From: a virus
Direction: 5' to 3' (one strand)
DNA: 64,000 bases
Virus record (IMG/VR): IMGVR_UViG_3300006028_000010
Location: 36,330-100,329 of that record
The notes under the pieces: model-generated
What the model saw: only the letters and a program-made list of their open reading frames with translations
What the model was told of the DNA's origin: nothing
The model's database searches: none
Shown here: positions 25,554 through 59,947 of the stretch, one piece after another
Numbering within the stretch: the stretch's first letter is position 1
Layout of the letters: each line of letters starts with the position of its first letter
Program-made: the position numbers and the translations under genes

Positions 25554-26749
25554 TACAAAAGCTCCATTTCCCCGGTGATACTCAAAATTCCGGCCTGCGG
25601 GTAGTTACCCGAGATGTAGGGGATGCCGGTACCCGTGAATTGGGATGATGTCGACGCGACTTGGTAGTAGCCGAGACGGCAGTCGCTGGACGAGAACGGG
25701 TACTGCGGGTACATCAGGTTCCCGGATGCGAAGATGACCGCGTCGCCAACCCACCGGGTGGTGTTGGTGGCCACATACAGCCAGGTGTGCAGGTGGGTTT
25801 CTTGTTTGGCGAACGCCCCCGCGGGTAGGAGTGTGAATACCGCGCCCCATCCCATGTTGTAGGGGGAGTTGCCCCAGTCGAAGAAGTAGTTGAGTCGCAG
25901 TGTTTTACCGACGGTTTGGTAACGGGCCACGGTTACCGCGCCGGACCCGAGGCTGCAAATTTTGGTGAGGTCGACTGCGCTGCCCGGCCCGCTGGGCTGG
26001 TAGTAGAGGGACGGGGTGAAACTGGACCATCCGGTGAGCGACACGATAGGCACCCACGCCTGTGCGGTGCCCTCCCACCCTTCGTAGGCGAGGGTGGTGA
26101 GGTTGTACCGCATTTGCCCCGGGTAGCCGCCTTGGCGGGTGTCGATTGATGTTGCTGGGTAGATGCCGCCGCGGGCGGTGGCGTACACCCTGCGACCGGA
26201 GATGTCGCTGGTCAAGATTTGGGTGGTGGCTGCCCGGACAGTGACCGCGGCCAGCAGGAAATCGCCTTCGGTGAGCAGCCCGGTGGGTTCCGCCGGGGTT
26301 GATGAGGGGGTGCCCTGAAGGATGACGATGTCCGCGGTGCGTGTCGGGGCGGGGGTGTCCACGTCACCGTCGCGGATGCGGATCACCACGTAGTCGATGC
26401 GCGGGTTGGAGGCGTTAGCGGTGGCGAACGTGATCGGAACAGGTGAGGTGATCGCACCCAGGTACACGCCCCGGTAGGAGCGGGCGATCATGTAGTTGCC
26501 GAAGTTGACTTGGGCGCCCATGTTCGCGGTGGGGGTGTTCGCCGTGACCTGGCAGTCGGTGATGGTGCCGTTGCTGGTTTGGGTGGGGAAAATACCCGAG
26601 CCGAAACCGAACGAGCCGCCACCGGGCAGCCCCTGGCTTAACCCGCCGAGCGCGATCCGCCAGTCGTCGGTTGTGTTGCCTATCCCGTTAGTGACATCCT
26701 TGTGCACGGCGACGGGATCCGTCATTTGGGATAAATTGGAAATTGTCAA
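25553..26749 (-). CDS. Minor tail protein
   Basis: ANASNPRIDYVVIRIRD...GTPSSTP...LAAVTV...GGI; TTG start overlaps the HNH stop. Confidence 0.75.
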   Translation of the reverse strand: MTISNLSQMTDPVAVHKDVTNGIGNTTDDWRIALGGLSQGLPGGGSFGFGSGIFPTQTSNGTITDCQVTANTPTANMGAQVNFGNYMIARSYRGVYLGAITSPVPITFATANASNPRIDYVVIRIRDGDVDTPAPTRTADIVILQGTPSSTPAEPTGLLTEGDFLLAAVTVRAATTQILTSDISGRRVYATARGGIYPATSIDTRQGGYPGQMRYNLTTLAYEGWEGTAQAWVPIVSLTGWSSFTPSLYYQPSGPGSAVDLTKICSLGSGAVTVARYQTVGKTLRLNYFFDWGNSPYNMGWGAVFTLLPAGAFAKQETHLHTWLYVATNTTRWVGDAVIFASGNLMYPQYPFSSSDCRLGYYQVASTSSQFTGTGIPYISGNYPQAGILSITGEMELL

Positions 26750-27345
26750 GCCCCCATCCTGGCCCCCTTGCGCTGGTTGCACACCAGGTGAGCCAATTGG
26801 ACGTTATGTAGCGCGTGAACGCCGCCGCGAGTCAACGGAGTAATATGATCTAGTGTTGGACTTAGCGGGTGTGTGTACTTTACGCCTTTTTGTACAGGCT
26901 CCCCGCACAACTGGCAGATCCAGTTATCACGACGACACACGTCTATCCGAGAAAACGTAGCCATCTCGATACGATAACCCGTACGCCGTTTATACCCGTT
27001 GCGTCGTGTTAGTTCCTTAACAATATCATGATTGTCAGCACGGTAACGCGCCTCTCGTCGGAGAATCATCTCACGCCCAGGCCCTAGCCTACGCGCTTTC
27101 TGTGTACATGAATTGCTGCAAAACCTACGGTTACGCTGGACACCCGCGGGAAGCATTCGGTCACAGCCAGTGCGTTCACAACTCCGAGCGGTTGAAGAGT
27201 CCCCTCGCGCTCTGCGTTCACATCTTAAGCCGACGACATGATGTTTACATGCGCGTGAACAATAAATCTTGTCAGAACGATTAGGTATAAAACGCTTGCC
27301 GCAACGTGTATCCGCGCAAGCGCGCGGGGTATGTATAATCGCCAC
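26746..27345 (-). CDS. Free-standing HNH endonuclease with two N-terminal Cys4 repeats
   Basis: RDNWICQLC...LDHITPLTRGGVH...NVQLAHLVCN; YCSRAC and FCSNSC. Confidence 0.88.
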   Translation of the reverse strand: MAIIHTPRACADTRCGKRFIPNRSDKIYCSRACKHHVVGLRCERRARGDSSTARSCERTGCDRMLPAGVQRNRRFCSNSCTQKARRLGPGREMILRREARYRADNHDIVKELTRRNGYKRRTGYRIEMATFSRIDVCRRDNWICQLCGEPVQKGVKYTHPLSPTLDHITPLTRGGVHALHNVQLAHLVCNQRKGARMGA

Positions 27346-27436: not shown

Positions 27437-28369
27437 TTAGTACCAAGCTGAGCGCACGGACGCGACGAGCACGGCGGTGGACAGCGCGGACGCTGTGATT
27501 TGGTAGGTCGCGATGTCCTGCGGGTCGATTTGTGGCCAGTCGCCGTTGCGGACGACTTGGGACCACACGTTGGTGGCCCCGTTGAGGAGGGCGCTGTGCC
27601 CTGGTTGGCCCCGTTGTGGGAATTCGTCGCAGTTGATGGTGAGTACGTCACCGGCGAGTAGGGACCCGATGAACAGCAGCGACCAGCCGGAGATGAGGTC
27701 GGTGATTCGCGGCTGGTCAACTGGTCCGGTGATCGAGATGTATGGCCCGACTGGGGCGGTGCCGTAGTTCGCGACTTGCGCCACCGCTGGTGAGCCGCTG
27801 ACGCCGTAGTCCATGCCGTTGGTGAAGTCGACACCCCCGGTGTAGTCGACACCGTCGGTGCTGGGGGTGGGTAGTAGTGAGGTGCGGTCCATCCACGCGG
27901 CTGACCATTTGCGGGGGTCGGGTGCCACGAACTGGGCGCTGACCAGCAACGACTGCCATGTTCTTGGGGCGATCAGCAGCGCGTCGTCTAGTTCGACGAG
28001 CGCTGTTTGCGGGTCGAGGGGCGGGTCGCTGACACTGAGCTCATAAAGCCGGCCACCGTCGGAGCACCACGCGCCTAGTTGTTGTTCAACGAGGCGGATG
28101 GTGGGCGCGTCGGGGGCGGTGACCACGAACTCGATACCGATGATGCGGCTGTCCTGGTATGCCCTCGAGCGGAATGATCCGGCCCCGAACGGTTTCGCGG
28201 TCCGCGCGGTGCGGGGTTTGGGCCGCCCAGCCCAGCCGCTGAGTTTGGTGCACACCCATTCGACCCCGCCGCTATCGACTGGTTGCGGTCCGCCGATCAC
28301 CCGCATCAGCAGCTGAACCCCGTCGAGGGTGACGGTGGATTGGGTGGTGACCGGCGCGAACATTGTCAT
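27437..28369 (-). CDS. Distal tail protein (Dit-like)
   Basis: Follows the tape measure; LSGW...GSF...FVAPDPRK...NYGTAP...ITGP...RSAW. Confidence 0.75.
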   Translation of the reverse strand: MTMFAPVTTQSTVTLDGVQLLMRVIGGPQPVDSGGVEWVCTKLSGWAGRPKPRTARTAKPFGAGSFRSRAYQDSRIIGIEFVVTAPDAPTIRLVEQQLGAWCSDGGRLYELSVSDPPLDPQTALVELDDALLIAPRTWQSLLVSAQFVAPDPRKWSAAWMDRTSLLPTPSTDGVDYTGGVDFTNGMDYGVSGSPAVAQVANYGTAPVGPYISITGPVDQPRITDLISGWSLLFIGSLLAGDVLTINCDEFPQRGQPGHSALLNGATNVWSQVVRNGDWPQIDPQDIATYQITASALSTAVLVASVRSAWY

Positions 28370-31300
28370 GAGCGGAGGGCGAACGCTTGCCGGCGGTCAA
28401 CCATGAGGGCGATGGATTCCTCGTTTTGGTCGGCCCGTGGGTAGATGTGGAACACCGACTGCTCCCTAGTCCGGTCACGGGACTGCTGGTACATCCACGA
28501 CGGGTCCGGTCGGGGTGAGTTGGCCATTTCACCCGTGTAGGCCCGGTCGTAGCCGGGTGGCAGCGCGGTGGTGGTGGAGGGTCCGGCGGTGGTGCCGATA
28601 CCGGTGCCCTGGTGCCGCGGCCACCACTGCCCTAATTGGGGGCTTTGCGGCGCTATGGTTTGCATCGCTGCGGTGAAGCTCGCTGCCTGCTGTTGCAGCA
28701 GGCCCGCCAACTGCTGGCCACCACCAGCCCCGGCCCCGGAGAGGGCTGGGGCGATGAACTGCGCGAACAGGCGCCGCAGCAGACCCCACAGGTTGAACCC
28801 GTCGAAGCCGTCGCCTCCTCTGCGACGCCCGCGGGGGCCGTAGTCCGGTGCGGGGGCATCCGGTTCGGTGGCGTAACCCAACGCCGCCCCCGAGTCGTCG
28901 GTGGCAAGGATCCTGCCCTGGGCCAGCCCCAGGATCGGGGCGAGCATTTTGAGCAGCGGCAACAATTTGCGGGGGATGAGCATTTGCCCCATCAGTTCAG
29001 CGGTCCGGGCTAGAATCGCTTGGGACATCGCTGACTGGTTGATGGGAATGAACGCTTCCATTCCTTGCAGCCGGTCACCGATGACGCGCCACGTGTTGGG
29101 GGGCACGATTTGCGCGATGCTCGACGACATTGGGGTGAGTTTCCCCCCGGCAGCCATTCCCACGACCCCACCGGCCGCCATAGGGGCCACGATCATTCCG
29201 CTGGCGCCGCCGGTGACCGCGTTGACCACAGCGGTCCAGGTGCGGCTGACGATCGATTCCAGGCTGGCGAGAATGCCCTGAATAACACCGGATGCGTTGT
29301 CTAGGGCACCGATCGTCGCGTTCCACGCCCTACCGACGTATTCACCGGCCTTGCTGATAACGGTTTGGATGACGCTGCTAGCACTGTCAGTGGCGCTGAC
29401 CACAGCATCCCACGCCCGCCCAACCCACCCACCAACGGTGCTGATCACGGACTGGATGACGCTACTAGCGGTGTCGGTGGCGCTAACAACAGCGTCCCAC
29501 GCCCGCCCGACCCACCCACCGACCGCGCCGATCACGGACTGGATGACACCACTCGCGGTGTCGATCGCGCCGACGACAGCGTTCCACGCCCGACCAGCCC
29601 ATTCGCTGGCTTTGTTGATGACAGCCTGAATGGCTGCGGTGACGGCGGTGAACGCGGTGGTCGCGGCGCTCGCAATGCCGCTCCACAACGCAGCCGCACC
29701 CGCCGAAATACCAGCCCACAAACTGGAGAAGAACCCGCTGACAGCACCCCAAGCGGTGGTGATCCCCGTCCAGGCAGTGGACGCGGCGGCGGTGATCCCC
29801 GACCACGCCGCCGTAGCCCCCGACGAGATACCAGCCCACAAACCGGCGAAGAACCCTTGGACAGCGCCCCACGCCGCCGTGATCCCCGACCACGCCGCCG
29901 TAGCCGCCGCTTTAATGCCGGTCCACGTCGCGGACGCCGCTGCCGTTATCCCATCCCAGCCCTGTTTCAGCCCAGCAACGAACGTGTCCCAACCGGATTT
30001 GATGGCGGTCCACGTCGCGGAAGCTGCGGTCGACAACCCGGAACCGGCGTCCTTGAACCCCTGAACGAACTTGTCCCAACCGGCTTTGATTCCCTGCCAC
30101 GCCCCGTCCGCGCCGGCTTTGATACCAGCCCAGGCGTCTTTGAATCCTTGCAGGAACATGTTGTCGGGGTTGATGGCCTTCCACATGTCCTTGAAGCCCT
30201 GGATAGTGAAATCCCAGTTTTTCCACACCAGCAGCGCGATACCGGCCAAAGCCAGCAGCGGTAGCGCGATCGCCGCCACCGGGGCTAGCGCGGCTAGGAA
30301 TCCAGCGGCGATGCCTTCACCCGCGACGGCCCCTGCCACTCCTGCTTCCGCTCCCGCCACGGTCGCTGCTTCCTCCGCGACGGTCACAGCCAACCAGGCC
30401 GCCCGAAGCTTCCCGAGTAACCCGATCGCCGACCCGATGGTGGACACCATCCCAGCGGCGCCGGATACGAGTTTCGCGAACAGCCACGCATCGAAAAACG
30501 CCTGAATAATGGCGGTGGCACCGGGCACGTTGTCCATGACCCAGCGGATGACGCTGGTGACGTCATGCAGTGCTTGCAGGAAGTTAGGGCCGAACCCTTG
30601 GGCTGTCGCCAAGTCCTTGATGATCGCCACAAGGTCTTTGAACGCGCCCCACAGCTCCTTCACCGCAGCCATACCAGATTGGATCCACTGCGCTAACTGC
30701 CCGGTTTGCCGGGCATTAGACACAAACGCGGCAGCAGCTTGCGCGGCGGACGTGAAACTCGCCGCCAACCCGGGCAGAAACTGCGAGCCCACCCGGGCGA
30801 CATCGGTGAAAATCTGCAAAATGGGTTGCACCGCGCCCGCCAGCGAATGCGCCGCGGTACCAATATTGTTGAAAATAGCCTGGTAATCCGCGATCGCTGC
30901 TTTCGAAGTGGCGAACTTCGCGAAGTTCAGGACAGCCTCATTGATCGCTGCCGCTACTTGGGTCAACCCGGACCGCAGCACCGGTAACACGGTGGTGCCC
31001 ATGTTGAGCATGGCCGCACCGACACCCTGAAACAGTTGCTGCTGAACATCCATTTTCAGCGCATCAAACGCGGGTTTGAGCTGAATAATCGCCGACACAA
31101 CCTGCTGAGCGGCTGGCGCCAAGTTCTTGAGGGACGCTGCGTAGTCATCAGCGGCTTTCGCTGCGCTCTTATGCGCGGCTGCTGCTGCTGTCACGGCCTG
31201 GGTGGCGGCCTGGTGCGCCGCGGCGGACCCACCCACCGCAGCCGCGACAGCCTTGTTAGCCGTCGCGTCCGCCTCGGTGGCTTTCGCGGCGGCATCCGCC

Positions 31301-32173
31301 GCGGTGCCCGCACCTTTCAGCGCCTCACTCATACCTTGGACACCGATGGCCACCGCGCCCAAACCGAGCCCAGCACCCAACGCGATAGCGGGAATCAAAC
31401 CCAGCACACCGGTCAATTGAGCAGCGGACGCGATCGCAGGAACAAATGCCGCGCCCATGGCGACACCCATCAGCGAGCCCTTGCTGCCAACATCGGTGAC
31501 CGCTGTCCCCAACGTTTTAAGGGCAGTCGTCGCCGAGTTGGTATCAACATTGACTTTGATATTCGGGGACCGGGCACCCAAAGCGGCTAACGCAGCCTCC
31601 AACTCAGCGATTTTCGCCATAGCCGCAGCGGTGTCAATGTTTACACTGACATGAGCGTCCCTCAACGCGTCCAAGCGGGCCTTGAGCTCATCAATCCGGG
31701 CCTCAGCCTCAGCGATATCCGCATCAACCTTAACGCTGGACGGCTGAGCCTTCAGCCGCTCCAAATCGGCCTCTAAACGAGTCAGCTCAGCCCGAGCAAC
31801 AGCATCATCAAGCTCAATCCTCAGTTTAGCGGCCTGCGCCGCCGCCAACTCCGCCTTAAGAGCCGCTATCTTCTCACGGAACAACCCCGGATCAGCATCC
31901 ACCCGGATCTTGGTGTCACCGATCGTCGCGGTCTCAGCGGCGACCTTCTCCTTAAAGCCGGCCATGTTCGGGGACACGTCAACTTCGGTGTCCCGAATGT
32001 TCGCGGTCTCAGCGTCGACCTTTTCCCGGAAACCCGCCATGTTCGGCGAGATGTCGACCTCAGCGTCGTTGAGGTCGGCGAGAGCCGCGCGGATCTTCTC
32101 GTGCAAACCCTCCAGCGAAGGCGTGACCTGAAGGAAGGCTCCCCTAAGCCTCGCCTACGTTGAAGCGAGCCAT
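28366..32173 (-). CDS. Tape measure protein, interrupted by a 10-nt gap after codon 9
   Basis: Ala-rich protein with Trp-periodic repeats. The ATG at 32173 has a GAGGGGGT RBS and gives MARFNVGEA-stop; the main frame resumes AFLQVTPSLEGLHEK. Confidence 0.85.
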
Positions 32174-32219
32174 GGGCACCACCCCCTCACTGCCCGAAGG
32201 CGGTCAAAGGGGGTGGTGA

Positions 32220-33049
32220 CTACGGTGACCCGTTGAGCGGTGGTTCGGTGAGCCGGGCTAGTTGTTGCTCGAGGTCACTCATGGCCTCATCGCGACGTTG
32301 CCGGTGGACGCGTTGCACCGCGGTTTCGGGGCGGGGTTGGGGCCGGAATTCCGGGACCCGGCCTCCTTGGGGGGTGTTGACGAGGATAATGGTGCGAACG
32401 ACCATGGCGAGCCCGTCGAGCAGCGATGCCCGCAGCTCGGCCATTTGGTCCCAATGTGACAGTGGTATCGACGCTGTGGTTCCGCGTTGTTCTGGGTCGT
32501 CTTCGTCGTCGAGTACGGCGGCGGCGGTTTCGTCGTCGTCAACGATGGCTAGTTTGTAGGCGGAATCCCAGGGTAGTCGTTCGGCTAGCGTCAGTAGTTT
32601 CCGCCAGGAGTACCGGCCCCGGAAAAAGTCCAGTAGATCGATCCCGAGGCGGGCGTGGAAATCGTATTCGAGGTGCTCGCCGTAGCGCTCTATAAGCGAG
32701 ACGAGCGCCGCAGGTTTCCCAGGTCGTCGTCCTCACCGTCGTAGTCGGGGTCGAACGGGTTCCGTTTCCATAACCCGAATTCGACCATCACATCACCGAG
32801 CATCCGCTGCAACGCCCCCGCGGGGGCGTCGATGGCCGCGTCAAGCAGTTTACGGCCTTGCTCGGCCCCCATGAGTGCTAAAACGAACTGGTCGTCGTCG
32901 GAGCGCCGGGCTTTGTTGACGAGGTCGATGGTCCGTTTGGAGGGGAACGGGATGGTCAGGATTTCCCCGTCGGGCATTTCCAGCTCGACGGGTTCCCGGG
33001 CGGCTTCTTTGGTGTAGGTGTCCCAGCGGCTCGCGAGACGTTTAGCCAT
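32220..33049 (-). CDS. Tail assembly chaperones G (32690-33049) and GT via -1 frameshift
   Basis: G GGA AAC slippery site at 32714-32720; the -1 frame is open (PAALVSLIERYGEHLEYDF...DFFRG...) through to the stop at 32220. Confidence 0.85.
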
Positions 33050-33268: not shown

Positions 33269-34210
33269 TCAGGAGGTGGTGACGGTGACAACGTTGGATG
33301 GGGTCGCCGAGGGGCCGATGGTGTTGACGGCGAACACCTCGAAGTCGTAGCTGGTCGCGGTGGTCAACCCGGTGATGGTGGTGCTGTTCGTGGTGGGGGT
33401 GCCACCAGCGCCGGACAGGACCGCGGTGAAAGAACCGGACCCGGCGGGGGTGCGCTTCGACACGGTGTAGCTGGTGGCCCCAGCGGTGGCGTTCCACGAC
33501 AACACCACCGTGGTCGTTGTCTTCGCCCCGAGCGTAAGACCGGTGGGGGCGACGGGCACCACGATCGGCGGGAACCCCATGGCTGGTAGCGCGGCCTGAA
33601 GCCCAGGGCCGCCCCACAGTTCGGACACCGCGTAACCCAGGGCGTCGTCCACGGTGGCTGTGAATGTCACATCCACCTGAATTTCCGTGGTTTCCGACCA
33701 CGACTGGGCGTTGACGTCGGACACCAAAACGCGGGGCAGGAACCGGGCGTAGTAGTACGTGGATGTTCCCGCGCCGTCCTGCGCCAAGGCCAGCAGCCGG
33801 AAGTATGTGGTGGACGGTGTGGTGGGTCTCCGGAAGTAGACCTCCCCGGTGACCGGGGTGGGTACCACGGTGGATAGGTCAGCGTTGAGGGCCAGCTGCA
33901 ACGTCATCAGCTTCGACTCTTGCAGTGTGACCTTCACCGACATCACATCGGAGGTGATGTCGCGGCGGACCGCGTCGGACACGCCGTGGCTGAACACCTC
34001 ATCGTTTTTGATGTCCCGGTTCCACACCAGGCCATGATCCTTGGTGTGTCGCCCGAGGGAAACGTAGGCGGGGTCAATCGCGTTCAGCGTCGGGGACGCA
34101 CCGGAAGTGATCGACGTGATCTCCGGGGCGGTCGACGGCCCCAGCATGATCACCGCGTCCTGCGCCTTGCGGATCAGGCCCGAGTTACGAGTAATGGCGG
34201 ACAGTGGCAT
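33269..34210 (-). CDS. Major tail tube protein with C-terminal FN3 domain
   Basis: Position in the operon; APTGL...LSWNA...Y...GLTTATSYDFEVFAVN FN3 signature. Confidence 0.85.
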   Translation of the reverse strand: MPLSAITRNSGLIRKAQDAVIMLGPSTAPEITSITSGASPTLNAIDPAYVSLGRHTKDHGLVWNRDIKNDEVFSHGVSDAVRRDITSDVMSVKVTLQESKLMTLQLALNADLSTVVPTPVTGEVYFRRPTTPSTTYFRLLALAQDGAGTSTYYYARFLPRVLVSDVNAQSWSETTEIQVDVTFTATVDDALGYAVSELWGGPGLQAALPAMGFPPIVVPVAPTGLTLGAKTTTTVVLSWNATAGATSYTVSKRTPAGSGSFTAVLSGAGGTPTTNSTTITGLTTATSYDFEVFAVNTIGPSATPSNVVTVTTS

Positions 34211-37057: not shown

Positions 37058-38308
37058 TCACCCCGTAGAGGGGAGTGGCTCACCTGGGTGAAACGTGGCC
37101 CAGTAACGACACCTCTTATTGCAGTAAGTAGCCCCACGGCGGCGGCCTGGTGCTATCTCTGTACCGCACGCAGGGCAGTGCCTGTAGGCAGGATCACCAG
37201 GGTAGTTCGGGTTATTTCGTTTGTAAATGTAGCACGACCTACAGCAGCCCTTTACTTGGATAAGGGCCGACTTGCCGCACAATGCACAAGGTAACCGTTC
37301 GCTAGAAACCGGGGGGACATCGTTCATTTTAATGAAATTTTCGATGTTCCGCCGAGACCCACGACTGCGCGAACCAGCGCGCCATTCAACAAGCAGTAAC
37401 GCATGCTTGGACACGTTGCATGTGGCGCAAGCTGGCAGGATGTTACCTATCCCACCTCGACCACCCCGAGAAACCGGCACCACATGGTCAATATGTAGTT
37501 TGTTCGGCCGATCCCCACAATAGGCGCAACACCCACCGTAGCGATTCACGAGACGACGCCAGTCGCGTTCTAGTACCGCGACAGTGAAAGGGTTGTCTCT
37601 CACTAGCCTACGTCGATTACGGCCCCATAGACGCATATACAACCTGTTGTTTTCGCGCCACACACGCTGCCCCTGGCGTTGACTACACTCCTTTGAGCAG
37701 TATTTCCAACGCACAAAGTCGCCAGGCGTGAAAACTGAGTCGCACTCCTGGCACATAACTTTATCGGGCAACGCCGAGCGACCCATAGTCGCGCGGGAGT
37801 AGCACAAGCTGCCACAATATTTTACATCAATTCGGCGATGATCCAGTGACTTCTTGCACCCGATATAGTTGCATTGACGACCGGCTTTCGGTGGACGCTT
37901 TCGGCCAGCATTACCGCCGCCGACTGCCCACGACTTGCATCTGTCTGAACAGTATTTCCGTTTACGGTCCGATTCAGCTGGAATTATCGTGTCACACGCC
38001 AAGCAAACACGATCACCAACTGGCAACCGCTTTACCTCAGGTGGGTGTTCCCGATACCAGTGAAGGCAAGCGGAAGAACAGAATCTTCGTTTCCAGTTTG
38101 CTTCCGCTGGTATCGCGGCGTCACACGCCAAGCATGCCCGCCCTGCCTGATTGATTCCATCTCGTTTACGCCGAAGTTCAACGAGTTCAACGGCACATGC
38201 TTCACATAACTGACGGTGAGCGCGGCGCTGTTGATCGCGCCTTACAATAAACTCACTAAGCGGCTTACACTCATTACACCTAGTGCAAACGTTGGTACGC
38301 TGGGACAT
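37058..38308 (-). CDS. HNH endonuclease with multiple Cys4 zinc-finger repeats
   Basis: CAYCG...IDHVVPVSRGG...NILPACATCN; four CxxC..(F/Y)CxxxC repeats before the nuclease and one after. Confidence 0.88.
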   Translation of the reverse strand: MSQRTNVCTRCNECKPLSEFIVRRDQQRRAHRQLCEACAVELVELRRKRDGINQAGRACLACDAAIPAEANWKRRFCSSACLHWYREHPPEVKRLPVGDRVCLACDTIIPAESDRKRKYCSDRCKSWAVGGGNAGRKRPPKAGRQCNYIGCKKSLDHRRIDVKYCGSLCYSRATMGRSALPDKVMCQECDSVFTPGDFVRWKYCSKECSQRQGQRVWRENNRLYMRLWGRNRRRLVRDNPFTVAVLERDWRRLVNRYGGCCAYCGDRPNKLHIDHVVPVSRGGRGGIGNILPACATCNVSKHALLLVEWRAGSRSRGSRRNIENFIKMNDVPPVSSERLPCALCGKSALIQVKGCCRSCYIYKRNNPNYPGDPAYRHCPACGTEIAPGRRRGATYCNKRCRYWATFHPGEPLPSTG

Positions 38309-38392: not shown

Positions 38393-39352
38393 CTAGCTGG
38401 AAGCGCTACCCGCAGTAAGCACTCCGAAAGGAAATCGCGTGGCCGAGTTAGCGTTCAACGCGGTCACCGGGTTCACCGTCGCGAACGCTAACCTCATGAC
38501 CACACGCATGATGCTGCCGTCCATCTGGACCGCGTTGTAAATAATTTTGCCGTCAGCATCATTGATGGTGCCCTGATCAAAGATCTTAAAGGTGATATCT
38601 TGCCGGGTGCCGATAATGGCCTTGGACCAGTCCCCGACGAGCAGGTCCGCGACGCTGGGATCCCACGCGCCGTTCGCGACCTCGGTCATGGGGTAGCCGT
38701 ACAGGCTGCCACCGCGACCGTTTTGCAGGTCAGGCTCATAAATGGGGTCACCGGAACCGGTGGACCGGATCCGCAGCAGACGCCACTTGAACCCGGGCCT
38801 AATCAACCATCCGTTGATGTTGGTGTAGCCGTCGAGGGCTACTTTCTCCGCGAGAAGCGCCACACTGGCCGGGACATCAGCAGTCGTGTCAGCGACCGTG
38901 TTCCCCGCGGCGATAGCAGCTGGGATAAGAGCCTGGGACCACGTAGCTGGCTTGTTCACACCGAACAGGCAGGCTTGGTCGATGGCTTTGCCGAGGGCTT
39001 CAACGAGACGGGGGCGGACTTCATCCCACAACGGGACACTGGTGTCCGCCATGTACGCGTCGGGAATCGGCACGAGAGCGGCCAGTTCCTCAACCACCAG
39101 CGAAACGTTCTTCCACTCAAGGTTCGTGGATTGCTTGAGACCGGAATCCCCAGACACGAAATAGGCTTGGGGTAGGACGTCGAGCACGGCGAGCCGCTGG
39201 GTGCGGGTGGACATGGGCACGCTGCGCGCCATGTTCAGCACCGCGGATTGGGTGGGGAGTTCCTGGATGATGTCCTCGGACAACGGTTCCGGGACGAGGG
39301 GGTCGGTGGTGGGCGGTGTCGCCCTGGTGATTCCCGTGTTGTAGGTAGGCAC
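38393..39352 (-). CDS. Major capsid protein (HK97 fold)
   Basis: LVPEP...EELAALVPIP...IDQACLFG...LYGYP...GDW; follows the scaffold gene. Confidence 0.9.
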   Translation of the reverse strand: MPTYNTGITRATPPTTDPLVPEPLSEDIIQELPTQSAVLNMARSVPMSTRTQRLAVLDVLPQAYFVSGDSGLKQSTNLEWKNVSLVVEELAALVPIPDAYMADTSVPLWDEVRPRLVEALGKAIDQACLFGVNKPATWSQALIPAAIAAGNTVADTTADVPASVALLAEKVALDGYTNINGWLIRPGFKWRLLRIRSTGSGDPIYEPDLQNGRGGSLYGYPMTEVANGAWDPSVADLLVGDWSKAIIGTRQDITFKIFDQGTINDADGKIIYNAVQMDGSIMRVVMRLAFATVNPVTALNANSATRFPFGVLTAGSASS

Positions 39353-40315: not shown

Positions 40316-41158
40316 TTAGCCTCCCGGGATCTCGCTGGGGCCGGTCCAATGCTGATCCCGCACAGCCAGGACAGGACCGAGTTCCCCATGGTTGTGCGTG
40401 ACGAGTATTTTGTGGTAATCAATAGGCCCGCTGGTGCCACCGGCCGACACGTACTTGTCACCTAAGTCCCGAGCTATCACAGCGTGCAACTCTTCAGCGG
40501 GCACTTCATCTGGGCGAGCACCACCGAAGAGGGGTTCCACGGCACAATCACAATTATTGTGGATAGGAAGCAGGTCACCACGGCTGTACCGCCGGGTTGA
40601 CGCTAAAACACACAGCGCGCAAGAATGCGGACCAGTAAGAACGCGGCGATAACCAGTAACGCGTCGATCATTCCGCATCACCTCTCGGGCAGTGTGCGTT
40701 TTGGCCAGCTGCAAATCGGTGGCCGCGATGCTCTGCGCCCGCCGCCCACCAGCAGCCACCGCCACATCAAACGGTTTACCGCGGGACAGATCGGTCCACA
40801 CCTGAACGTAGGGCCGCCGATACACCTCGGTCGGGGCGACGCCACGCAGCCCGCTCAACGCATCCTGAGAGATGCCCACGGGGGCGGTGCTGCCCCCACC
40901 GGCAGCGGCTATCACCTGCGCAAGATAAGCGCTGGTCACACCCGCCATGACCTGCTGGGCAGCCAACACAGTGGGCACCACCGACAAAACGAACGCCTCA
41001 GCCGCGGCATCCCGATAATCACCCTGAGCGGCGTACATCATGGCCACAAAACCCAGCAGCCGGGACCTCAACGCGGTGGTAGCCGCGAAATAGGCGGCGG
41101 TCATGGCCGCTGTGCTGGCGTCCTGGGGTTGCGGCGGCGGATTGGGAGGGGCGGTCAC
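40316..41158 (-). CDS. MuF-like minor head/maturation protein
   Basis: GYRRVL...CALC...PIHNNCDC. Confidence 0.8.
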   Translation of the reverse strand: MTAPPNPPPQPQDASTAAMTAAYFAATTALRSRLLGFVAMMYAAQGDYRDAAAEAFVLSVVPTVLAAQQVMAGVTSAYLAQVIAAAGGGSTAPVGISQDALSGLRGVAPTEVYRRPYVQVWTDLSRGKPFDVAVAAGGRRAQSIAATDLQLAKTHTAREVMRNDRRVTGYRRVLTGPHSCALCVLASTRRYSRGDLLPIHNNCDCAVEPLFGGARPDEVPAEELHAVIARDLGDKYVSAGGTSGPIDYHKILVTHNHGELGPVLAVRDQHWTGPSEIPGG

Positions 41159-43905
41159 GGCTGCGAACTAATGGCAGGACCAGACGGTCGCACCCTTTCA
41201 GCGGCAGCGCTACCAGCGGGCAGCCCCATAGCCCGAGCGACCGCCTGGGCGGGAACCGCGGCACCACCAGGGGCACCAGCCGGCTTAGGCGCATTGAACG
41301 GCGCCGCCGGTGGAGACAGAATCGAGTTCAGCATGGCGTCCGATGCCCGTTCCGACTGCATCCGATCAATCTGGCTGGGCGTGAACGGTAACAAACTCAT
41401 CCGGGTACGCCACGGAACCCCCGCAGTGACCAGCTGCACATTCGCCGCTGCCATCTCCATCAACGTCCGGAACTGGGGGTCCTGCCAGATCACTTCGCAA
41501 TCATCGGGGACGGTTTTGCCTTGCACCATCCCCGCGAGCTGATACACGGTCTCCCACGATTCCCCGAATTCGGCGCTGCGTTCGGTGACCTTGCTGGTCA
41601 GGCCGGTTTCGGCGGCGGCCAAGGCGTCGCCGCTGTTGTGTGTTGCGATAAATGCATCGGTCACGCAGAACAGATGCGATGGGCCTGTTACAGTGATGCA
41701 CCGCACCGGCACAGAATCAACCGGGTCGCATGACACGATGAACCGTTGGAATACCTTCTGCTGCCCTGAGCTACTGAACTCAGTGTTCTGGAGTGCCGCT
41801 TTGCGCGCCAACCGGAACACTGGGTCGCGGGCCGACCATACCAAACGCCAACGATCCCCCGCGATTCCCTTGCTTTTTGACGTGAACCGGCCCTTTCGCA
41901 ACATCACCTTGTGTCCAAGGGACTGAATCAAGCGCGCGGCGTCTGTAGATAGCCGCTCATCATGGAAGCCTAGCTCCATTCCACCCTGGCCACGTTTCAC
42001 GGTGCCATCGGTGTCCATCAACCCTTGCAGCAACGCAAGCCGCTGCTTAAATGATCCGTGGAAGTACTCCTCGGGAATGTGCTTATTCTTCCACAATCCT
42101 GCAAGTTTAAGCCGCGCCACGAATGACCGGTTGGACCTAGCCGGAAGTTGGCTCGGACGCCCATGATACTTGTCCAGCTGCCGAACGCGATCACACTCCA
42201 TGCAATGCCTGCTGATCGTGTGAGTACCCTTTGGCTGTCCCCGATCGTGCCCATAAGGACACAGATCCGGGTCATGCCGGATACAGATATGCATACAGTT
42301 CCGGTGTTCGTGATCAGTGTAGGGGCGTACATCCACACGCTCACCACAGTCACGTAAGTGCGTGGCCATCTCCGCAGCGTCATCAACATGTGATGTGATC
42401 AGGCCGTTCACTCGGTCACCGTCACCGAGCCACACACCTAGTACATAGGGATGGATCAAGTACTCACGTTCCGGGCCATCGGGTGGTCCGGCCACCTCGA
42501 TGAAGTGGTTGTTCGTGCCCATGCTTGTGCGCAGCGACGCAGCTATCTGCTCCGTCGTCACCGTGGAGGTTTCCCGGAAAGCGCCTCGCAACTGTTTGCC
42601 CGTGTATCCAGTACCTCTGGTCGGCCGCCAGTACGGCCGTTGCGGATCACTGAAGTGGGTAGTTGTCCACAAGTGCGCTCCGTCAGCAACCACTGACGTA
42701 CCGTCAGAGAAGACGACTCTGTAGCAATCCCGATCGACGAAAATCGGAGAGATCGCTGTGACTTTCTGAACAGTGCCCGTCTCATCGAACACCGCATCAC
42801 CGATGGACACATCACCCATGGTGGTGCGCCCATCGGGGGTAGGAATGACCGTGTCGAGAGCTAGGGGAGCGTTGATAATTGATCCTAGCAGGTAGTGCGG
42901 CGGGGTGCGGGTGATAGCCGCTAGATGCTGCACATCGGCCTCGACCGCTTTCAGCACCGACGTCAGGTCGGCGGGTTGGAATTCCCCGAATTTCGCGGCG
43001 TCATCAGCCACGTTCCACAACAAATCAGCACCCGGGTCGAAACCCCCGGCGGGGTTACCGTTCTCATCCGTGAGATCCACGCCGGTGGCCCACCGTTGCC
43101 GATACGCTTGCATCGTGGAAATCACCATCCGGTCCAACACTTCAGTGTTGATCCGGTCCTGCACCGGTAGTACGTCCTCGAATTCGCCTAACGTGTTCCC
43201 ACCAAGGTCGGGGCAGCACATGAAGGGAACAACGGGGACCTCGCCGAGGGTGTTGACGGCGTACCCGTCGGGGTAGTCGTCGCTGACGTCTGGTTCCCAC
43301 GCGGCTTGGGTCCACATGTTGGTGGGGGGCTGTTTTTGGGTGCGGCCCCGGTAGTAGTGGATCGAGTCGGGTAGGTACAGCACGGCTTGCTGGCGGCTGT
43401 TGATGTCGTCCCACCACGTTTTGAGCGCGGCGAGCCGTTTCCGCCGGTTGGTGGGGGAGCTTTCGTGGATGACCTGCCGCGGGTCTTCACCTGTGACCAG
43501 CGGCTGCCCGGGGTGGTCCGGGTCTTCCCCGACGATGACGTACGCGCGGGACATGACGATCGCAGCCCTGTGTACGAGCCCGGAGTCGGCGTCGAGATGG
43601 TTGGACTGCCACCATCCCCAGGCTTGTTTGTCGAGGGTTTCGGAGCCGTCACCCCCGGTGCGGAACCCGGTGACTTTGAGGCGTTCCACCACGGACTCGG
43701 CGACCAGTTTGCAGAAGTTCGTTTTGCTCTGCTTCTGGAATTTGCGGTACGCCTCCCGCATCTTCATATTCCCGAAGGGCAGGGGGTGGTTACCGCGCCA
43801 GTAGTCGTCGAGGCGGTCCATGCGGGGGATGTCCCCGCCGAGGCGGGCCCCGAGGCGCAGTAGCCACCAGTCGGGGCTGTTGGGGGTTTTCGCGTCAGGC
43901 AGCAC
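41155..43905 (-). CDS. SPP1-like portal protein containing an intein
   Basis: NFCKLVAESVVERLKVTGFR, VPVVPF, GEFE, QAYRQRW, TPPHYL. Confidence 0.9.
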   Translation of the reverse strand: MLPDAKTPNSPDWWLLRLGARLGGDIPRMDRLDDYWRGNHPLPFGNMKMREAYRKFQKQSKTNFCKLVAESVVERLKVTGFRTGGDGSETLDKQAWGWWQSNHLDADSGLVHRAAIVMSRAYVIVGEDPDHPGQPLVTGEDPRQVIHESSPTNRRKRLAALKTWWDDINSRQQAVLYLPDSIHYYRGRTQKQPPTNMWTQAAWEPDVSDDYPDGYAVNTLGEVPVVPFMCCPDLGGNTLGEFEDVLPVQDRINTEVLDRMVISTMQAYRQRWATGVDLTDENGNPAGGFDPGADLLWNVADDAAKFGEFQPADLTSVLKAVEADVQHLAAITRTPPHYLLGSIINAPLALDTVIPTPDGRTTMGDVSIGDAVFDETGTVQKVTAISPIFVDRDCYRVVFSDGTSVVADGAHLWTTTHFSDPQRPYWRPTRGTGYTGKQLRGAFRETSTVTTEQIAASLRTSMGTNNHFIEVAGPPDGPEREYLIHPYVLGVWLGDGDRVNGLITSHVDDAAEMATHLRDCGERVDVRPYTDHEHRNCMHICIRHDPDLCPYGHDRGQPKGTHTISRHCMECDRVRQLDKYHGRPSQLPARSNRSFVARLKLAGLWKNKHIPEEYFHGSFKQRLALLQGLMDTDGTVKRGQGGMELGFHDERLSTDAARLIQSLGHKVMLRKGRFTSKSKGIAGDRWRLVWSARDPVFRLARKAALQNTEFSSSGQQKVFQRFIVSCDPVDSVPVRCITVTGPSHLFCVTDAFIATHNSGDALAAAETGLTSKVTERSAEFGESWETVYQLAGMVQGKTVPDDCEVIWQDPQFRTLMEMAAANVQLVTAGVPWRTRMSLLPFTPSQIDRMQSERASDAMLNSILSPPAAPFNAPKPAGAPGGAAVPAQAVARAMGLPAGSAAAERVRPSGPAISSQP
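41635..42867 (-). mobile_element. Class 3 intein (411 aa) with LAGLIDADG endonuclease
   Basis: Starts PLALDTVIPTP; HLW (block B Trp), VRCITV (block F Cys), THN|S (block G Thr); LGVWLGDG and LQGLMDTDG motifs. Confidence 0.9.
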
Positions 43906-43957
43906 GCACACCCCCTCGGCTGTGCCACCAGGGCACGAGTTGTGCTAGTGTTGTGTC

Positions 43958-49608: not shown

Positions 49609-50016
49609 TCACAGTGCTGGCGGAATCGTGACCGCGATAACACGGTCCTTGCCAACCATCTCCACCAACTCGGACAGCGGCTCCCGTCCGACATACGCGC
49701 CGAAGGGCATAGGTGCGACTGGATGGAACTCGCCATACTTGCTGGCCAGCGCGGCAAGCCATTCATCAACGTGCGCCTTGTCACGGAACTCATCTGGCGC
49801 GATCACTTCAGCCAGCCATGGGTGTTGCTTCAGTAACCACGTTTTGCATTCATCGGCAGCTCGGGGTAGCTGATGGGTGAAGTGTGGGATTCCAGTGATG
49901 TAATCAATGATCCGATAAACGCCGTCCATATGATTCGGTGAGACGAGATGCCCGTCAGTGATAGACAGCATATCGCCGAGGTGAAATTGTTGTGGTTCAG
50001 GTGTGGCGGTGGTCAT
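49609..50016 (-). CDS. Conserved phage hypothetical protein
   Basis: FHLGDMLSITDG...FTHQLPRA...QHP. Confidence 0.7.
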   Translation of the reverse strand: MTTATPEPQQFHLGDMLSITDGHLVSPNHMDGVYRIIDYITGIPHFTHQLPRAADECKTWLLKQHPWLAEVIAPDEFRDKAHVDEWLAALASKYGEFHPVAPMPFGAYVGREPLSELVEMVGKDRVIAVTIPPAL

Positions 50017-50891
50017 TCCACCTCCAATGCTGCCCTGACGCCCTGCTCTAGGCCGATCTTCGGCTCGTAAACTTTGAGCATCTCGGTGGGGTCACCAACC
50101 CGATACCTGACCCCAACGGGTGAATCCAGACGGTGGTGTATCTGAGGGCCGTAGCCAACGCTCTTACACACGAGGTCGGCGAGCTGGTTGAACGAGGTGC
50201 CGATCCCGGTGCACAGGTTCAACGGACCGGGGTGGTCCTGTTCCACGACGGCGAGGGCGGCGGATATCACATCGTCCACGTGGATGAAGTCTCTGACCTG
50301 CTCACCATCACCCCACACGGTGAACGGTGACTCCCGTCGGCGTGCCCGGTCGATAAAGCTGGGGAAGGGGTAGTCGAGGCTCTGCCCAGGGCCGTAGCCA
50401 GAAAAGGTTCTGAGCACGTGGGTTCTGATGCCCTCAGCTTGCGCCTCAGCAGCTAACCGCTCCCCAGTAAGCTTCACCCACCCATAAGTGGCATCCGGCA
50501 ATTCTGGATTGTGAAGATCGACGTCAATCTCTCGCAGCAAGCCTGCATCATCTTTACTTTGACGTGATACTGGATAGACCGCTGAGGACGACCAGTAGAT
50601 GATGTGATCCGGTCGAGTTCGTAATGTCCATTCGAACATCGCCCCATCTAGCATCAGGTTCATAGCACCGATATATGTGGGGCGGCCCTCAATGTCTACT
50701 CTACCACCAACATGGGCGGCACAATGCGCGACCAGATTGAACTTCGTGCTTTCGCGACGGAAGAAATCTCGGGCATCTATTCCATTATTGTTTATGTCAA
50801 CCGATGTGACGGACCAATCGCATTTATCAAGCTGGCAGACTATGTGTCTGCCGATAAATCCATCAGCCCCAGTCACCAGCGCCCGCTTCAC
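50013..50891 (-). CDS. NAD-dependent sugar epimerase/dehydratase
   Basis: [36 protein letters not shown]; GTG overlaps the HNH stop. Confidence 0.9.
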
Positions 50892-51466
50892 TTCTGTCTC
50901 CGAGGCTTCTTGTCTGCGCAGATGCCACCCTGTCCACGATTGCAGTTGCATCGACATTTACGCGGCCTAGTGTACGGTCGCCGGTTAAGCATCTGCTGAT
51001 TTGGAGTTGCCCACCTTACGTTACCCGGCTCATAGTTACCGTCGTTGTCGATCCGATCCAGGCTCATGCCTGGCGGTCTGGGTCCCATGTCTTTGTAGAA
51101 GTTTTCAAACTTCATCCATCGATCGCAGACTTTGATTCCTCTGCCACCATAATCTGAGTAGCTGGGAACATTCGGATTCAAGCACCGCGATTTCATGGTT
51201 TTCCACACGCCGTATATTAAAGTGTGTCGCATTCCATGAGTTCGGTGTGTATCCCCTGCATGTTCTCTCCGGTAGCATCCGCACGAAGACGTGTGCCCAT
51301 TTCTGAGGTCGGCAGACAACTTAATGCAAGCGTTTCCACATTCACAAATGCAGTTCCATCTAGATGTACCACCAGGTAGCGAACTAGACCCCTTAGAGTT
51401 ACTAGCTTGGGATATTACGGTGAGCCGGCCGTAGACGTGGCCGGTCCGGTCTATAAGCTTAGGCAT
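50888..51466 (-). CDS. Free-standing HNH-type endonuclease
   Basis: GRLTV...WNCICECG...SCGC...[12 protein letters not shown]...[20 protein letters not shown]. Confidence 0.88.
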
Positions 51467-51545
51467 GTCGGTCCTGCTCCTAACAGGTCGACCATGGCCT
51501 CGGGCCTGTTACCGCAGGCGCCGGGGTCCTTACTTGATCAGTATA
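51467..51545 (-). promoter_or_regulatory. Nuclease-associated leader, copy 4
   Basis: TATACT GATCAAGTAAGGA CCCCGG C GCCTG-CGGTAA-CAGGC CCGAGG CCATG GTCGACCTG-TTAGGAG-CAGGACCGAC ATG. Confidence 0.85.
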
Positions 51546-51557
51546 GCGTATCGGGCC

Positions 51558-52130
51558 CTAATACCTGCTTCGCCCGGCGATGATTTGGGACCAGTCCACT
51601 GTTTCGTGAACCATGATCTCGAAGTGTGGTTCGATCAACGCTCGATAGCCCGCCATGTCCCACGCGTAGCTATGACAGTCACCGTGCTGAAGGTCGGTTT
51701 CGCCGTGCGGTGAGGACGCCACCAGATACCGGGCGTGGTGGGCGACCCATTCCACGACGCTATGAGGGGCGGCTAAGTGTTCGAGGACTTCGGTGCATAC
51801 GGCGAGTTCACCCCAGCGGGGAACGTCACGATCGTTGAACACGTCGCGGAGTTCGGCGGTGACACCACGCTCGGCCCAGCCGGCCTGGTTGGTGGGTTGG
51901 AAGTCGTAGCCCCACGCGTCCAAGCCGGTGAGAAGAGATAGGAGTCCACCGTCACCGCCGCCTAGGTCAACGACGCTGGCCGGGTTGAGTTGGTGAATGA
52001 GTTGCGCGGTGCGCAGCAGCCGGGCCCGGTGGTCGGGTTGCTCGAGGTGGGGTGCGCGGTCACGGTCCGCGTGGAACTCGACGGTCGACACGAACGGTGT
52101 AGCGCCGGTGAACAACCGCCATTCAGCCAT
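51558..52130 (-). CDS. Class I SAM-dependent methyltransferase
   Basis: VVDLGGGDG, CTEVLEHL. Confidence 0.82.
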   Translation of the reverse strand: MAEWRLFTGATPFVSTVEFHADRDRAPHLEQPDHRARLLRTAQLIHQLNPASVVDLGGGDGGLLSLLTGLDAWGYDFQPTNQAGWAERGVTAELRDVFNDRDVPRWGELAVCTEVLEHLAAPHSVVEWVAHHARYLVASSPHGETDLQHGDCHSYAWDMAGYRALIEPHFEIMVHETVDWSQIIAGRSRY

Positions 52131-52740
52131 GCGCGCCGCGGGCTCTGATCAGGTTCGCGGTTTCGTTGGGGTTGCCGCTGTTCCGGTCCGAGGGGTGCCA
52201 CAAATGCCACACCACCCCTTCGTGCCGCACCGGCGGCCCGATCGTGGCAGTGACCACGGTGTGCCACGCGTTGTCCTCGAAACCCCAACCGACGAAACCC
52301 TCATCCATCCCACCAGCGGCGAGCCACCCATCGGCGAGCATCACCATGATCCCACCCTGGGCGGCGGGGATGGAGAACTCGATCCGCGCAGGGTCCGGTG
52401 GCTGACCGTGGAGAACCTCGCGGGTGCCGGCCTCGGTGAGGTAGTGGCAGATCGTGTACGGGTAGTGCAGCCGCCCGTCGTACGCGGAGGCGACCGCCAA
52501 CGCGAGAGGCTGCGGGTCGGGCAGAATGTCGGCGTCGCACACCACCGCAACATGCCCGGCGGGGGCGGCGCGGACACCGAAGTTACGCGACGCCGCCCGG
52601 TTGAACGTTTCGTGACCGGAATCAACAAGCAGCACCGGGAAACCAGGCAGCGCCCGGCGCAGCGCGGCGCACACAACACGACACCCAGCCGCCCAATCCC
52701 CACCCGGCGTGTCCCGCCACGGAACCACAACGATGGTCAC
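52123..52740 (-). CDS. GT-A glycosyltransferase
   Basis: VVVPWR, FNRAASRN, DAD, GGMDEGFVGWGFED, HLWH. Confidence 0.85.
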   Translation of the reverse strand: MTIVVVPWRDTPGGDWAAGCRVVCAALRRALPGFPVLLVDSGHETFNRAASRNFGVRAAPAGHVAVVCDADILPDPQPLALAVASAYDGRLHYPYTICHYLTEAGTREVLHGQPPDPARIEFSIPAAQGGIMVMLADGWLAAGGMDEGFVGWGFEDNAWHTVVTATIGPPVRHEGVVWHLWHPSDRNSGNPNETANLIRARGAHG

Positions 52741-52799
52741 CGCTTCCCCCACTGCGCGTCGCGGGCCGCCCGGCGGGAACACCGAGTCAACACACCCGA

Positions 52800-54502: not shown

Positions 54503-55312
54503 TCAGGGACGAGGTTTTATCCCTCTCCGCATTCGCCATTCCATGAGGAATGAGTCATGCTTGCTACAATTGCATGACTTGCACGCGGCAACAATGTTGC
54601 CTATCGAATGCGCTCCACCACGGTTAATGGGAACCACATGCTCCATCGTTAGCGGTTTCTTACCTCCGCAGTAGAAGCAACGGCCTCGACTACGCAGACG
54701 AATTCGGCGCCACTCCAGCTCTGGAACTCCGTAACCGACGGTAGCAGCACGTTTGACCGCATTGCGTTGCTGTTGCCGAGCCGCGTACCGTTCACGGTTT
54801 TGAACTTTGCCGTATTGCCCACCGCAATAGCTGGAACACGTCTCCGCGTCGGCCCTGTATGCGGTAATATCCGTTTGGCAGATTACACAATACTTCGGTG
54901 CCCGGGCGGCTATGCGGACCACACGAGTTCTGCGTGCTATTAGCACGTATCGGCAATGCTCCGAACAGTACGAGCTATCAGACCGCGGTCGTTCGAACAC
55001 GCGACCGCACGCCTCGCAGGGCATTTGAATGCGCGTTACGTGTTTTTTGGCGTTCTGCTCAGAGTTATTCAGATTTACACGGCATGGCTTGCTACACGTT
55101 CGCTGTGTTGCACGGGTCGGGGTGAACTCAGCTCCGCACCACTCGCAGTTGGCGGGTTCGTGCACACGAGGTAAGCGCCCGTGTTGGCGACGTAGTTCAA
55201 CTTTCCTTGCACACCGTAACTGACTACGGCATTCATCGGAACATGCGCGTTGATTGATCCTCTGCGGAACATATAGTGCCGAACACCAGGAACATCGGGT
55301 ACCGTGGGCCAC
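54503..55312 (-). CDS. HNH endonuclease with four Cys4 zinc-finger repeats
   Basis: Four CxxC..CSxxC repeats; CFYCG...MEHVVPINRGG.HSIGN...CKSCN. Confidence 0.88.
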   Translation of the reverse strand: MAHGTRCSWCSALYVPQRINQRACSDECRSQLRCARKVELRRQHGRLPRVHEPANCEWCGAEFTPTRATQRTCSKPCRVNLNNSEQNAKKHVTRIQMPCEACGRVFERPRSDSSYCSEHCRYVLIARRTRVVRIAARAPKYCVICQTDITAYRADAETCSSYCGGQYGKVQNRERYAARQQQRNAVKRAATVGYGVPELEWRRIRLRSRGRCFYCGGKKPLTMEHVVPINRGGAHSIGNIVAACKSCNCSKHDSFLMEWRMRRGIKPRP

Positions 55313-59768: not shown

Positions 59769-59947
59769 CCAGTGGGTAACGCCTCACGGAAACCCTTCGC
59801 TGGTTCCAACCAGCTAAGCGGTCGGTTTTAATCGCCGAACGGTCGTCTACAATGGACTACGTTCCATCAGGACGAATCGCTGTCCGGTGCTCTATCTGCG
59901 ACGGCGAGACCCTTGCAGGTCTCCTCCATGCAACCGCTCTCCACCGG
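59769..59947 (-). ncRNA. Candidate multi-branched structured RNA or leader
   Basis: Seven mutually compatible helices found by eye, two with GNRA loops. Confidence 0.55.

Follow-up and report, generated by a model that had tools for sequence, protein, structure and literature searches.

A 10-nt frame-breaking insert at the start of an actinophage tape-measure gene and its possible passage by a translational hop

The stretch of DNA analysed here (the window) comprises 64,000 nucleotides, bases 36330-100329 of a 100,329-bp IMG/VR virus record, and all positions given below are those of the window unless a contig is named. The source is an uncultured rhizosphere (soil) actinophage. The window has a GC content of 62.6%, the large terminase shares about 50% identity with its counterparts in Streptomyces, Gordonia, and Curtobacterium phages, and an integrase gene (1860-3122) indicates that the phage is temperate. 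No tRNA genes were found in the phage record, and a phage-encoded tRNA was thus rejected as a contributor to the events described below. When the phage collection was searched with DNA and with the N-terminal protein sequence, no cultured close relative was matched. Free-standing HNH endonuclease genes (26746-27345, 37058-38308, 54503-55312, and 59867-60670, all on the minus strand) are scattered over the structural and late regions, one of them between the capsid and connector genes and another among the tail genes. The 918-residue portal protein (41155-43911, minus strand) matches SPP1_portal within residues 27-284 only and carries a LAGLIDADG_3 domain at residues 623-676, an arrangement that suggests an intein with an internal homing endonuclease. 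Genes for an NAD-dependent epimerase, a methyltransferase, and a glycosyltransferase (50013-52782, minus strand) may serve modification of the cell envelope or the virion. The genes and signals surrounding the locus of interest are as follows.

38393-39352, minus strand: capsid gene
37058-38308, minus strand: HNH endonuclease gene
33269-34210, minus strand: major tail protein gene
32690-33049, minus strand: tail assembly chaperone G (PHROG tail assembly chaperone)
32714-32720, minus strand: slippery heptamer G_GGA_AAC, site of the usual -1 frameshift that leads into the T extension
32732-32220, minus strand: open frame of the T extension, in which the part at 32220-32444 matches the C-terminal part of chaperone family phrog_2624
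28366-32136, minus strand: main part of the tape-measure gene, from TTC at 32136-32134 (FLQVTPSLEGLHEK...) to the stop at 28368-28366, matching PHROG tape-measure families
27437-28369, minus strand: Dit gene

The initial annotation took the long gene to encode the tape-measure protein (TMP), and this assignment is borne out by a match to phrog_305 (E 7e-49), by matches to 16 further TMP PHROGs, and by the flanking major tail protein, chaperone G/GT pair (with its G_GGA_AAC site), and Dit. The middle domain is 34% identical to mycobacteriophage TMPs, while the N-terminal 60 residues gave weak matches only, inside annotated TMP genes of Gordonia and Rhodococcus phages. A cluster-mate of one TMP homologue was found in a Pseudonocardiaceae MAG. 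The other structural genes examined appear intact, as had been stated at the outset. The start of the TMP gene comprises the following elements.

32181-32188, minus strand: Shine-Dalgarno-like (SD) sequence GAGGGGGT, 7 nt 5' of the ATG
32147-32173, minus strand: ORF1, the ATG (32173-32171) and eight codons, MARFNVGEA, equal to residues 1-9 of intact homologues
32149-32147, minus strand: GCT, the last codon of ORF1 and proposed take-off codon
32144-32146, minus strand: TAG stop codon, which would occupy the A site with GCU in the P site
32137-32146, minus strand: 10-nt coding gap, TAGGGGA plus GCC, with GGG A at 32143-32140; a hop would leave 32146-32140 undecoded
32139-32137, minus strand: GCC, proposed landing codon; after take-off no GCN triplet precedes it in any frame
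32120-32155, minus strand: interrupted 14-bp hairpin predicted in context by ViennaRNA (-16.4 kcal/mol, z -2.2)
32104-32106, minus strand: TTG, the first canonical in-frame start of the TMP frame and the rival initiation site, with GGAGG 2 nt upstream

The layout of ribosome binding site, ATG, eight further codons, TAG, GGG A, and GCC is exactly that first written out for the minus strand. Eight codons follow the ATG (GCT CGC TTC AAC GTA GGC GAG GCT), and the arrangement of a GCU codon, an immediate UAG, and a downstream GCC is real. The TMP frame of 1,246 codons is +1 relative to the frame of the ATG; it is closed upstream by a TAG at 32157-32155 and contains no start before the TTG at 32106. 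Removal of exactly 10 nt yields MARFNVGEAFLQV, i.e., MARFNVGEAFLQVTPSLEGLHEK, and this joined product equals the N-termini of intact homologues residue for residue, so that the early remark on its resemblance to actinophage TMP N-termini proved well founded. At least seven protein homologues, plus the metagenome contig L052, are intact, with N-termini such as MARFNVGEAFLQVV (P0006), VARFNVGEAFLQVV (P0005), MALNVGEAFLQITPSLEGLHEK (P0004), MATFQVGEAFLKVTPSLAGLHKK (P0002), MARFQVGEAFLQVT (P0022), and MAKFNVGEAYVQVLPS (P0041). Judged against these N-termini, the 10 nt are precisely an insertion relative to intact genes, with a fit far beyond chance. A motif of the form G-x-A-[FYLVI]-[LVI]-x-[VIL], with its Gly at residue 6-11, is present in 25 of the 165 TMPs retrieved, and its spacing is unchanged across all 25. 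The insert divides this motif between Ala9 and Phe10, and the break therefore falls inside the most position-fixed motif of the family. Three homologues have been called without the motif, namely P0001 (JGI, 19,957-bp contig), which starts at HEK, P0165 (NCBI MGH3985742.1, 54,577 bp, in a Pseudonocardiaceae MAG), which starts at VPSLAG, and P0161 (Logan, 8,024 bp), which starts at its first internal Met; these provide only hints of further broken alleles. In P0020 (ENA, 402 aa) the N-terminal TMP motif lies at residue 126, after some 120 residues resembling part of a tail chaperone; here the chaperone and TMP genes appear to be fused in one frame.

Several other origins of the break were considered and rejected. 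An assembly or sequencing error, named from the beginning as a way in which the proposal could fail, is ruled out by an independent Logan assembly of run X1 (the probable source run), in which the contigs hold the identical stretch at a word depth of 20.5 (a contig-level value), and by a sister allele with one extra T (+1T) in five data sets. No variant was reported in the X1 contig, which is covered about 20x. Among the runs listed as containing this stretch, none is an RNA run. The 10-nt and 18-nt motifs occur once in the 100-kb record, which excludes a repeated or mobile mini-element. Reassignment or readthrough of TAG fails on two counts: TAG terminates six of 20 sampled genes and is thus an ordinary stop in this phage, and readthrough would stay in the wrong frame and meet a TGA 39 codons on. 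Transcriptional slippage was also dismissed, with the stop lying upstream of the sole homopolymeric run (G4) and the run of four T residues in the relatives being too short.

The initial annotation also proposed a search of related TMP genes for similar gaps. The 10-nt gap is absent from the related metagenome contig L002, but the same motif is broken there in another way. L002 is 96.2% identical to window 33373-29510 (about 3.8 kb), with no gene-sized difference in that interval, and its TMP gene starts GTG GCC CGT TTT C AAC GTC GGT GAG GCG TTT CTC CAG, in which one extra T at codon 4, within UUU_C, shifts the start codon out of frame by one base. A Logan contig of run X2, from another study (a microbial fuel cell metagenome), carries the same allele and the same substitutions as L002; relative to the window, 10 nt are left out and one base is added at 32162. 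A more distant group, lineage A, is made up of contigs from three IMG samples (L003/L022/L050, L004/L023/L049, and L024/L051) that are 99.9% identical to one another, with 4-8 SNPs, and have a TMP just 40% identical to that of the window. Their start, GTG GCC CGC TTT C AAC GTA GGT GAA GCT TTC CTC, contains the extra T as in L002. The start frame of lineage A ends as MARFQRR-TGA, a seven-codon zero-frame ORF, and the TMP frame contains no ATG, GTG, or TTG before codon 42, with only CTG and ATC upstream of the SD; the structural module of this lineage is otherwise ordinary. The +1T sites lie at L003 4101-4125, at the equivalent positions of L004 and L024, and at L002 1191-1215, and five data sets contain the allele. 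In these sister phages gene callers would place the start 19-41 codons late. In the window this codon is TTC, without the extra T, and L052 is intact, reading GTG GCG AGG TTC AAC GTC GGT GAG GCC TTC CTG CAG. The SD motif GAGGGGG(T)G is also present 5' of the start in L002, lineage A, and L052. A search for further relatives added only L052 and the unrelated L055 among viral contigs, and none among genome contigs. In lineage A (L049 5874-6173, then about 6222) and in L052, a tail-completion or Neck1-like gene directly precedes the TMP gene, with the gene for the major tail protein and two small genes farther upstream, an order unlike that of the window.

At the frame junction of L002, X2, and lineage A lies a UUU_Y sequence (CGY TTT C AAC), and joining the two frames there gives VARFNVGEAFLQV. 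The sister alleles are hence candidates for a +1 frameshift at UUU_C, in which tRNA-Phe would re-pair by +1 from UUU to UUC at codon 4. [quoted passage not shown] With CGY_UUU_C at the junction and a move from UUU to UUC, these alleles resemble E. coli UUU-pyrimidine sites, YopN-TyeA, and influenza PA-X (UCC_UUU_CGU; PMC5009743); unlike those cases, the shift would take place immediately after initiation, at codon 4, and would be needed for the main rather than a minor product. No obvious pause element follows UUU in the sister alleles, and a rare A-site codon was rejected as an explanation, the A-site CAA accounting for 40% of Gln codons in the phage.

Differences between the window and L002 are clustered in the start region, where 19 mismatches and three indels fall within 200 nt vs. 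about two differences per 100 nt elsewhere. Two patches of high divergence from L002 (32273-32077 and 30876-30677) contain 19-30 mismatches per 200 nt amid 96-100% identity and look like recombination patches. The first of these spans the TMP start module. The start module of L002 is common to the distant lineage A, which suggests that start modules, breaks included, have been exchanged by recombination.

The codons on both sides of the breaks have been conserved at the protein level. In the first 13 codons, every nucleotide difference is synonymous for the joined peptide. Between the window and L002 the first 40 joined codons contain 10 synonymous and no non-synonymous changes; between L002 and lineage A the ratio is 5:0 in codons 1-12, with 15 non-synonymous changes in codons 14-40, and L052 retains Arg3 despite a change of CGC to AGG. 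This synonymous-only change covers the codons between the breaks and the TTG as well as codons 2-4 upstream of the +1T break, and the selected codons include some that precede the break in one allele but follow it in another. Such divergence indicates strong purifying selection on the M/V-ARFNVGEAFLQV peptide. No other frame break was found in the 1,100-1,250 codons of any allele. Read directly from the sequences, the insert belongs to an allelic series, and this series, together with the synonymous-only divergence and the lack of other breaks, indicates that the breaks are not random decay or assembly errors.

These comparisons bear on the proposal that the insert arose recently and inactivated the gene in a copy of the phage that is defective or non-viable, for example a lysogenic one, possibly through a templated insertion at the AGGCCT centre. 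The phage is temperate, the 10-nt allele is known from one sample only, the insert lies at the centre of the AGGCCT palindrome and extends it, as quasi-palindrome mutagenesis would, and a stop soon after a frame-breaking insert is to be expected in any case. Against this, the relatives show at least two separate frame-breaking events, +1T and +10, all within codons 1-10 of a gene of about 1,250 codons that is otherwise unbroken; by chance this would be expected with a probability of roughly (10/1250)^2. The +1T allele is shared by TMPs of just 40% identity and by five data sets, and the remaining structural genes examined look intact in a contig of about 20x depth with no reported variant. Inactivation is, on this evidence, quite unlikely.

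A second way to dispense with recoding is initiation at the TTG at 32106 or further downstream, the TMP functioning without its first 19 residues. On this view the nine-codon ORF would be a remnant or, alternatively, a leader that, when translated, would unfold the RNA near the TTG. GGAGG is present just upstream of this codon, as seen in the initial annotation, and in a 76-nt fold the GGAG pairs with codons 4-5 of the mini-ORF, making such coupling conceivable; moreover, gene callers begin P0001 at the equivalent codon, and breaks at the extreme 5' end are those most easily tolerated. The spacing from SD to TTG is, however, merely 2 nt. The TTG is also the Leu codon of a conserved EG-L/I-HEK sequence and is replaced by ATC (Ile) in lineage A and L052, and in lineage A the first in-frame start comes only at codon 42 and lacks an SD. 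The region upstream evolves as coding sequence, with synonymous change only, and the portion that would be lost is the family's most conserved, N-terminally anchored part. A downstream start thus seems unlikely.

Recoding of some kind is the best-supported reading of the TMP start, and ribosomes probably hop or shift over the breaks found there; all of the alternative alleles would require a net displacement of +1. For the window we tentatively favor, at slightly below an even chance, production of full-length TMP by a short translational hop in which the ribosome leaves GCU, passes UAG, and lands on GCC, the nearest GCN codon downstream. Initiation would occur at the ATG at 32173, and nine codons would be read, bringing peptidyl-tRNA-Ala onto GCU with UAG in the A site. 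The tRNA-Ala would then release GCU, the mRNA would slide by 10 nt, and the tRNA would re-pair on GCC, after which decoding would restart at UUC. One tRNA-Ala with G34 reads both GCU and GCC by wobble decoding, and for such a tRNA the landing would replace a wobble pair with a Watson-Crick pair, as would the move from UUU to UUC in the sister alleles. The junction peptide predicted by the hop is GEAFLQVTPSLEGLHEK, without RGA. In the window, the conserved peptide would be recoverable solely by a 10-nt move of the P-site tRNA-Ala from GCU to GCC, and other take-off and landing pairs, such as GAG to GAG, were discarded, as their landing is not in the TMP frame. The hop itself, its efficiency, and its purpose are inferred, and the limiting or timing of TMP synthesis named in the initial annotation is a conjecture.

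[quoted passage not shown] Several observations count against it. The nascent chain is nine residues long at take-off, and a tunnel signal needs the residues 14-30 from the P site; a nascent-peptide stimulator of the gene 60 type therefore cannot act, and the site is not classed as a gene-60-type element. Take-off and landing codons are synonymous, not identical. A random insert would begin with GCN followed by a stop in about 1 in 300 cases, too often to be neglected when many sequences are scanned. Stop-hops in E. coli are reportedly inefficient when unstimulated, at about 1% (Weiss et al. 1987). The z-score of the predicted RNA structure is modest. Folded alone, the small hairpin described in the initial annotation does form (7 bp with a loop of 4 nt, -8.0 kcal/mol), but in context ViennaRNA prefers the 14-bp hairpin, whose 5' arm includes both the take-off codon and the UAG and whose apical loop, GCCU, contains the landing GCC. 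Of 200 shuffled sequences four fold as well as this predicted hairpin, which is represented by a single allele and of which much would lie within the ribosome at take-off; the same region of insert-free relatives gives z-scores of -0.1 to -0.4.

A related alternative is a +1 frameshift at GCU_UAG_G without long-range re-pairing, as in prfB or Ty3, in which AGG in the +1 frame would be read and the product, MARFNVGEA-RGA-FLQV..., would be three residues longer. The two frames overlap across GGC GAG GCU UAG only, an A-site stop is a classical stimulator of +1 shifts, and the sister alleles apparently shift +1 at UUU_C. In Ty3, a P-site peptidyl-tRNA-Ala permits out-of-frame decoding in the A site (PMC5009743). 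Re-pairing of tRNA-Ala on CUU is impossible, however, and only one Arg codon is used less than AGG in this phage (6% of Arg). A shift of this kind would also place Arg-Gly-Ala within G-x-A-F-L-Q-V, whose spacing is invariant in 25/25, an argument also used for phiHau3. The +1 shift is for these reasons very unlikely. The two products differ in their junction peptides, with FNVGEAFLQVTPSLEGLHEK expected from the hop and ...GEARGAFLQ... from the shift.

To our knowledge, natural bypassing is certain only for T4 gene 60 and its relatives and for one yeast mitochondrial lineage. Bypassing in the terminase gene of the Streptomyces phage phiHau3 is still a candidate. It is the 10-nt inserts of that gene that form the closest precedent for the proposed hop, and the bypass of this length that the initial annotation mentioned for a Streptomyces phage gene has indeed been proposed. 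The phiHau3 terminase gene contains two frame-disrupting 10-nt inserts, and 7-nt terminase inserts are found in two prophages, including StrepC.1 of S. catenulae (Smith et al. 2013; PMC10732093). The flanks of phiHau3-type inserts are adjacent in homologues, conserved junction peptides argue against simple frameshifting, and the phiHau3 junction peptide has been detected by mass spectrometry in E. coli (PMC10732093). Like the UUA-triggered candidates of phiHau3 and StrepC.1, the site described here is a short frame-breaking block in an essential late gene of an actinophage, with flanks that are adjacent in homologues. As in phiHau3, the junction peptide is conserved, extra residues are unlikely, and local RNA pairing, here predicted, would bring landing near take-off. 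The two differ in the A-site codon, which is UAG here and the rare sense codon UUA in phiHau3; UUA is found here out of frame only (GC-UUA-G), and TTA is not especially rare in the phage (4.6 per 1,000). They differ further in the gene (tape measure vs. terminase) and in the position of the break (codon 9-10 vs. internal), and there is no bldA-type developmental logic here, while the sister alleles have a 1-nt break.

T4 gene 60 offers a second comparison. Shared with it are a UAG directly after take-off, a landing codon read by the same tRNA, a stem-loop (here predicted) that includes the take-off codon, an SD-like run in the gap (GGGGAG here), and a phage rich in free-standing homing endonucleases. 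Unlike gene 60, the gap is 10 nt rather than 50, the codons are synonymous (GCU/GCC) rather than identical (GGA/GGA), the nine-residue chain is too short for a KKYK-type tunnel signal, and no endonuclease gene adjoins the site, the nearest being about 4.8 kb away on either side (26746-27345 and 37058-38308). In having matched codons that flank a stop, a short gap, and no elaborate signal, the site resembles the stop-hops and hungry-codon bypassing of E. coli (Weiss et al. 1987; Gallant and Lindsley; reviewed in PMC5009743). Those events are synthetic or adventitious and inefficient, whereas the hop proposed here would be natural and required, in an essential gene.

A broader reading is possible, though doubtful: the first 13 TMP codons may be a recoding hot spot, in which alternative frame-breaking alleles, rescued by the ribosome, are held by selection. 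These alleles would include the extra U at UUU_C and the stop-hop gap of 10 nt, and further ones may underlie P0001, P0165, and P0161. With this ultra-conserved DNA site broken, the phage could escape a nuclease that recognizes a specific sequence, be it a homing endonuclease, a restriction enzyme, or CRISPR; the benefit could instead be that recoding, if inefficient, fixes the very low dose of TMP. If the hop is true, a required 10-nt stop-hop at codon 9 would mean that minimal signals and hardly any nascent peptide suffice for short hops. The natural allelic series at one motif (intact, +1 U, and +10 nt) provides ready reporter controls. For annotation, the consequence is that gene callers start such TMP genes 13-41 codons late. 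The finding also bears on why frame breaks cluster at the TMP start in soil actinophages.
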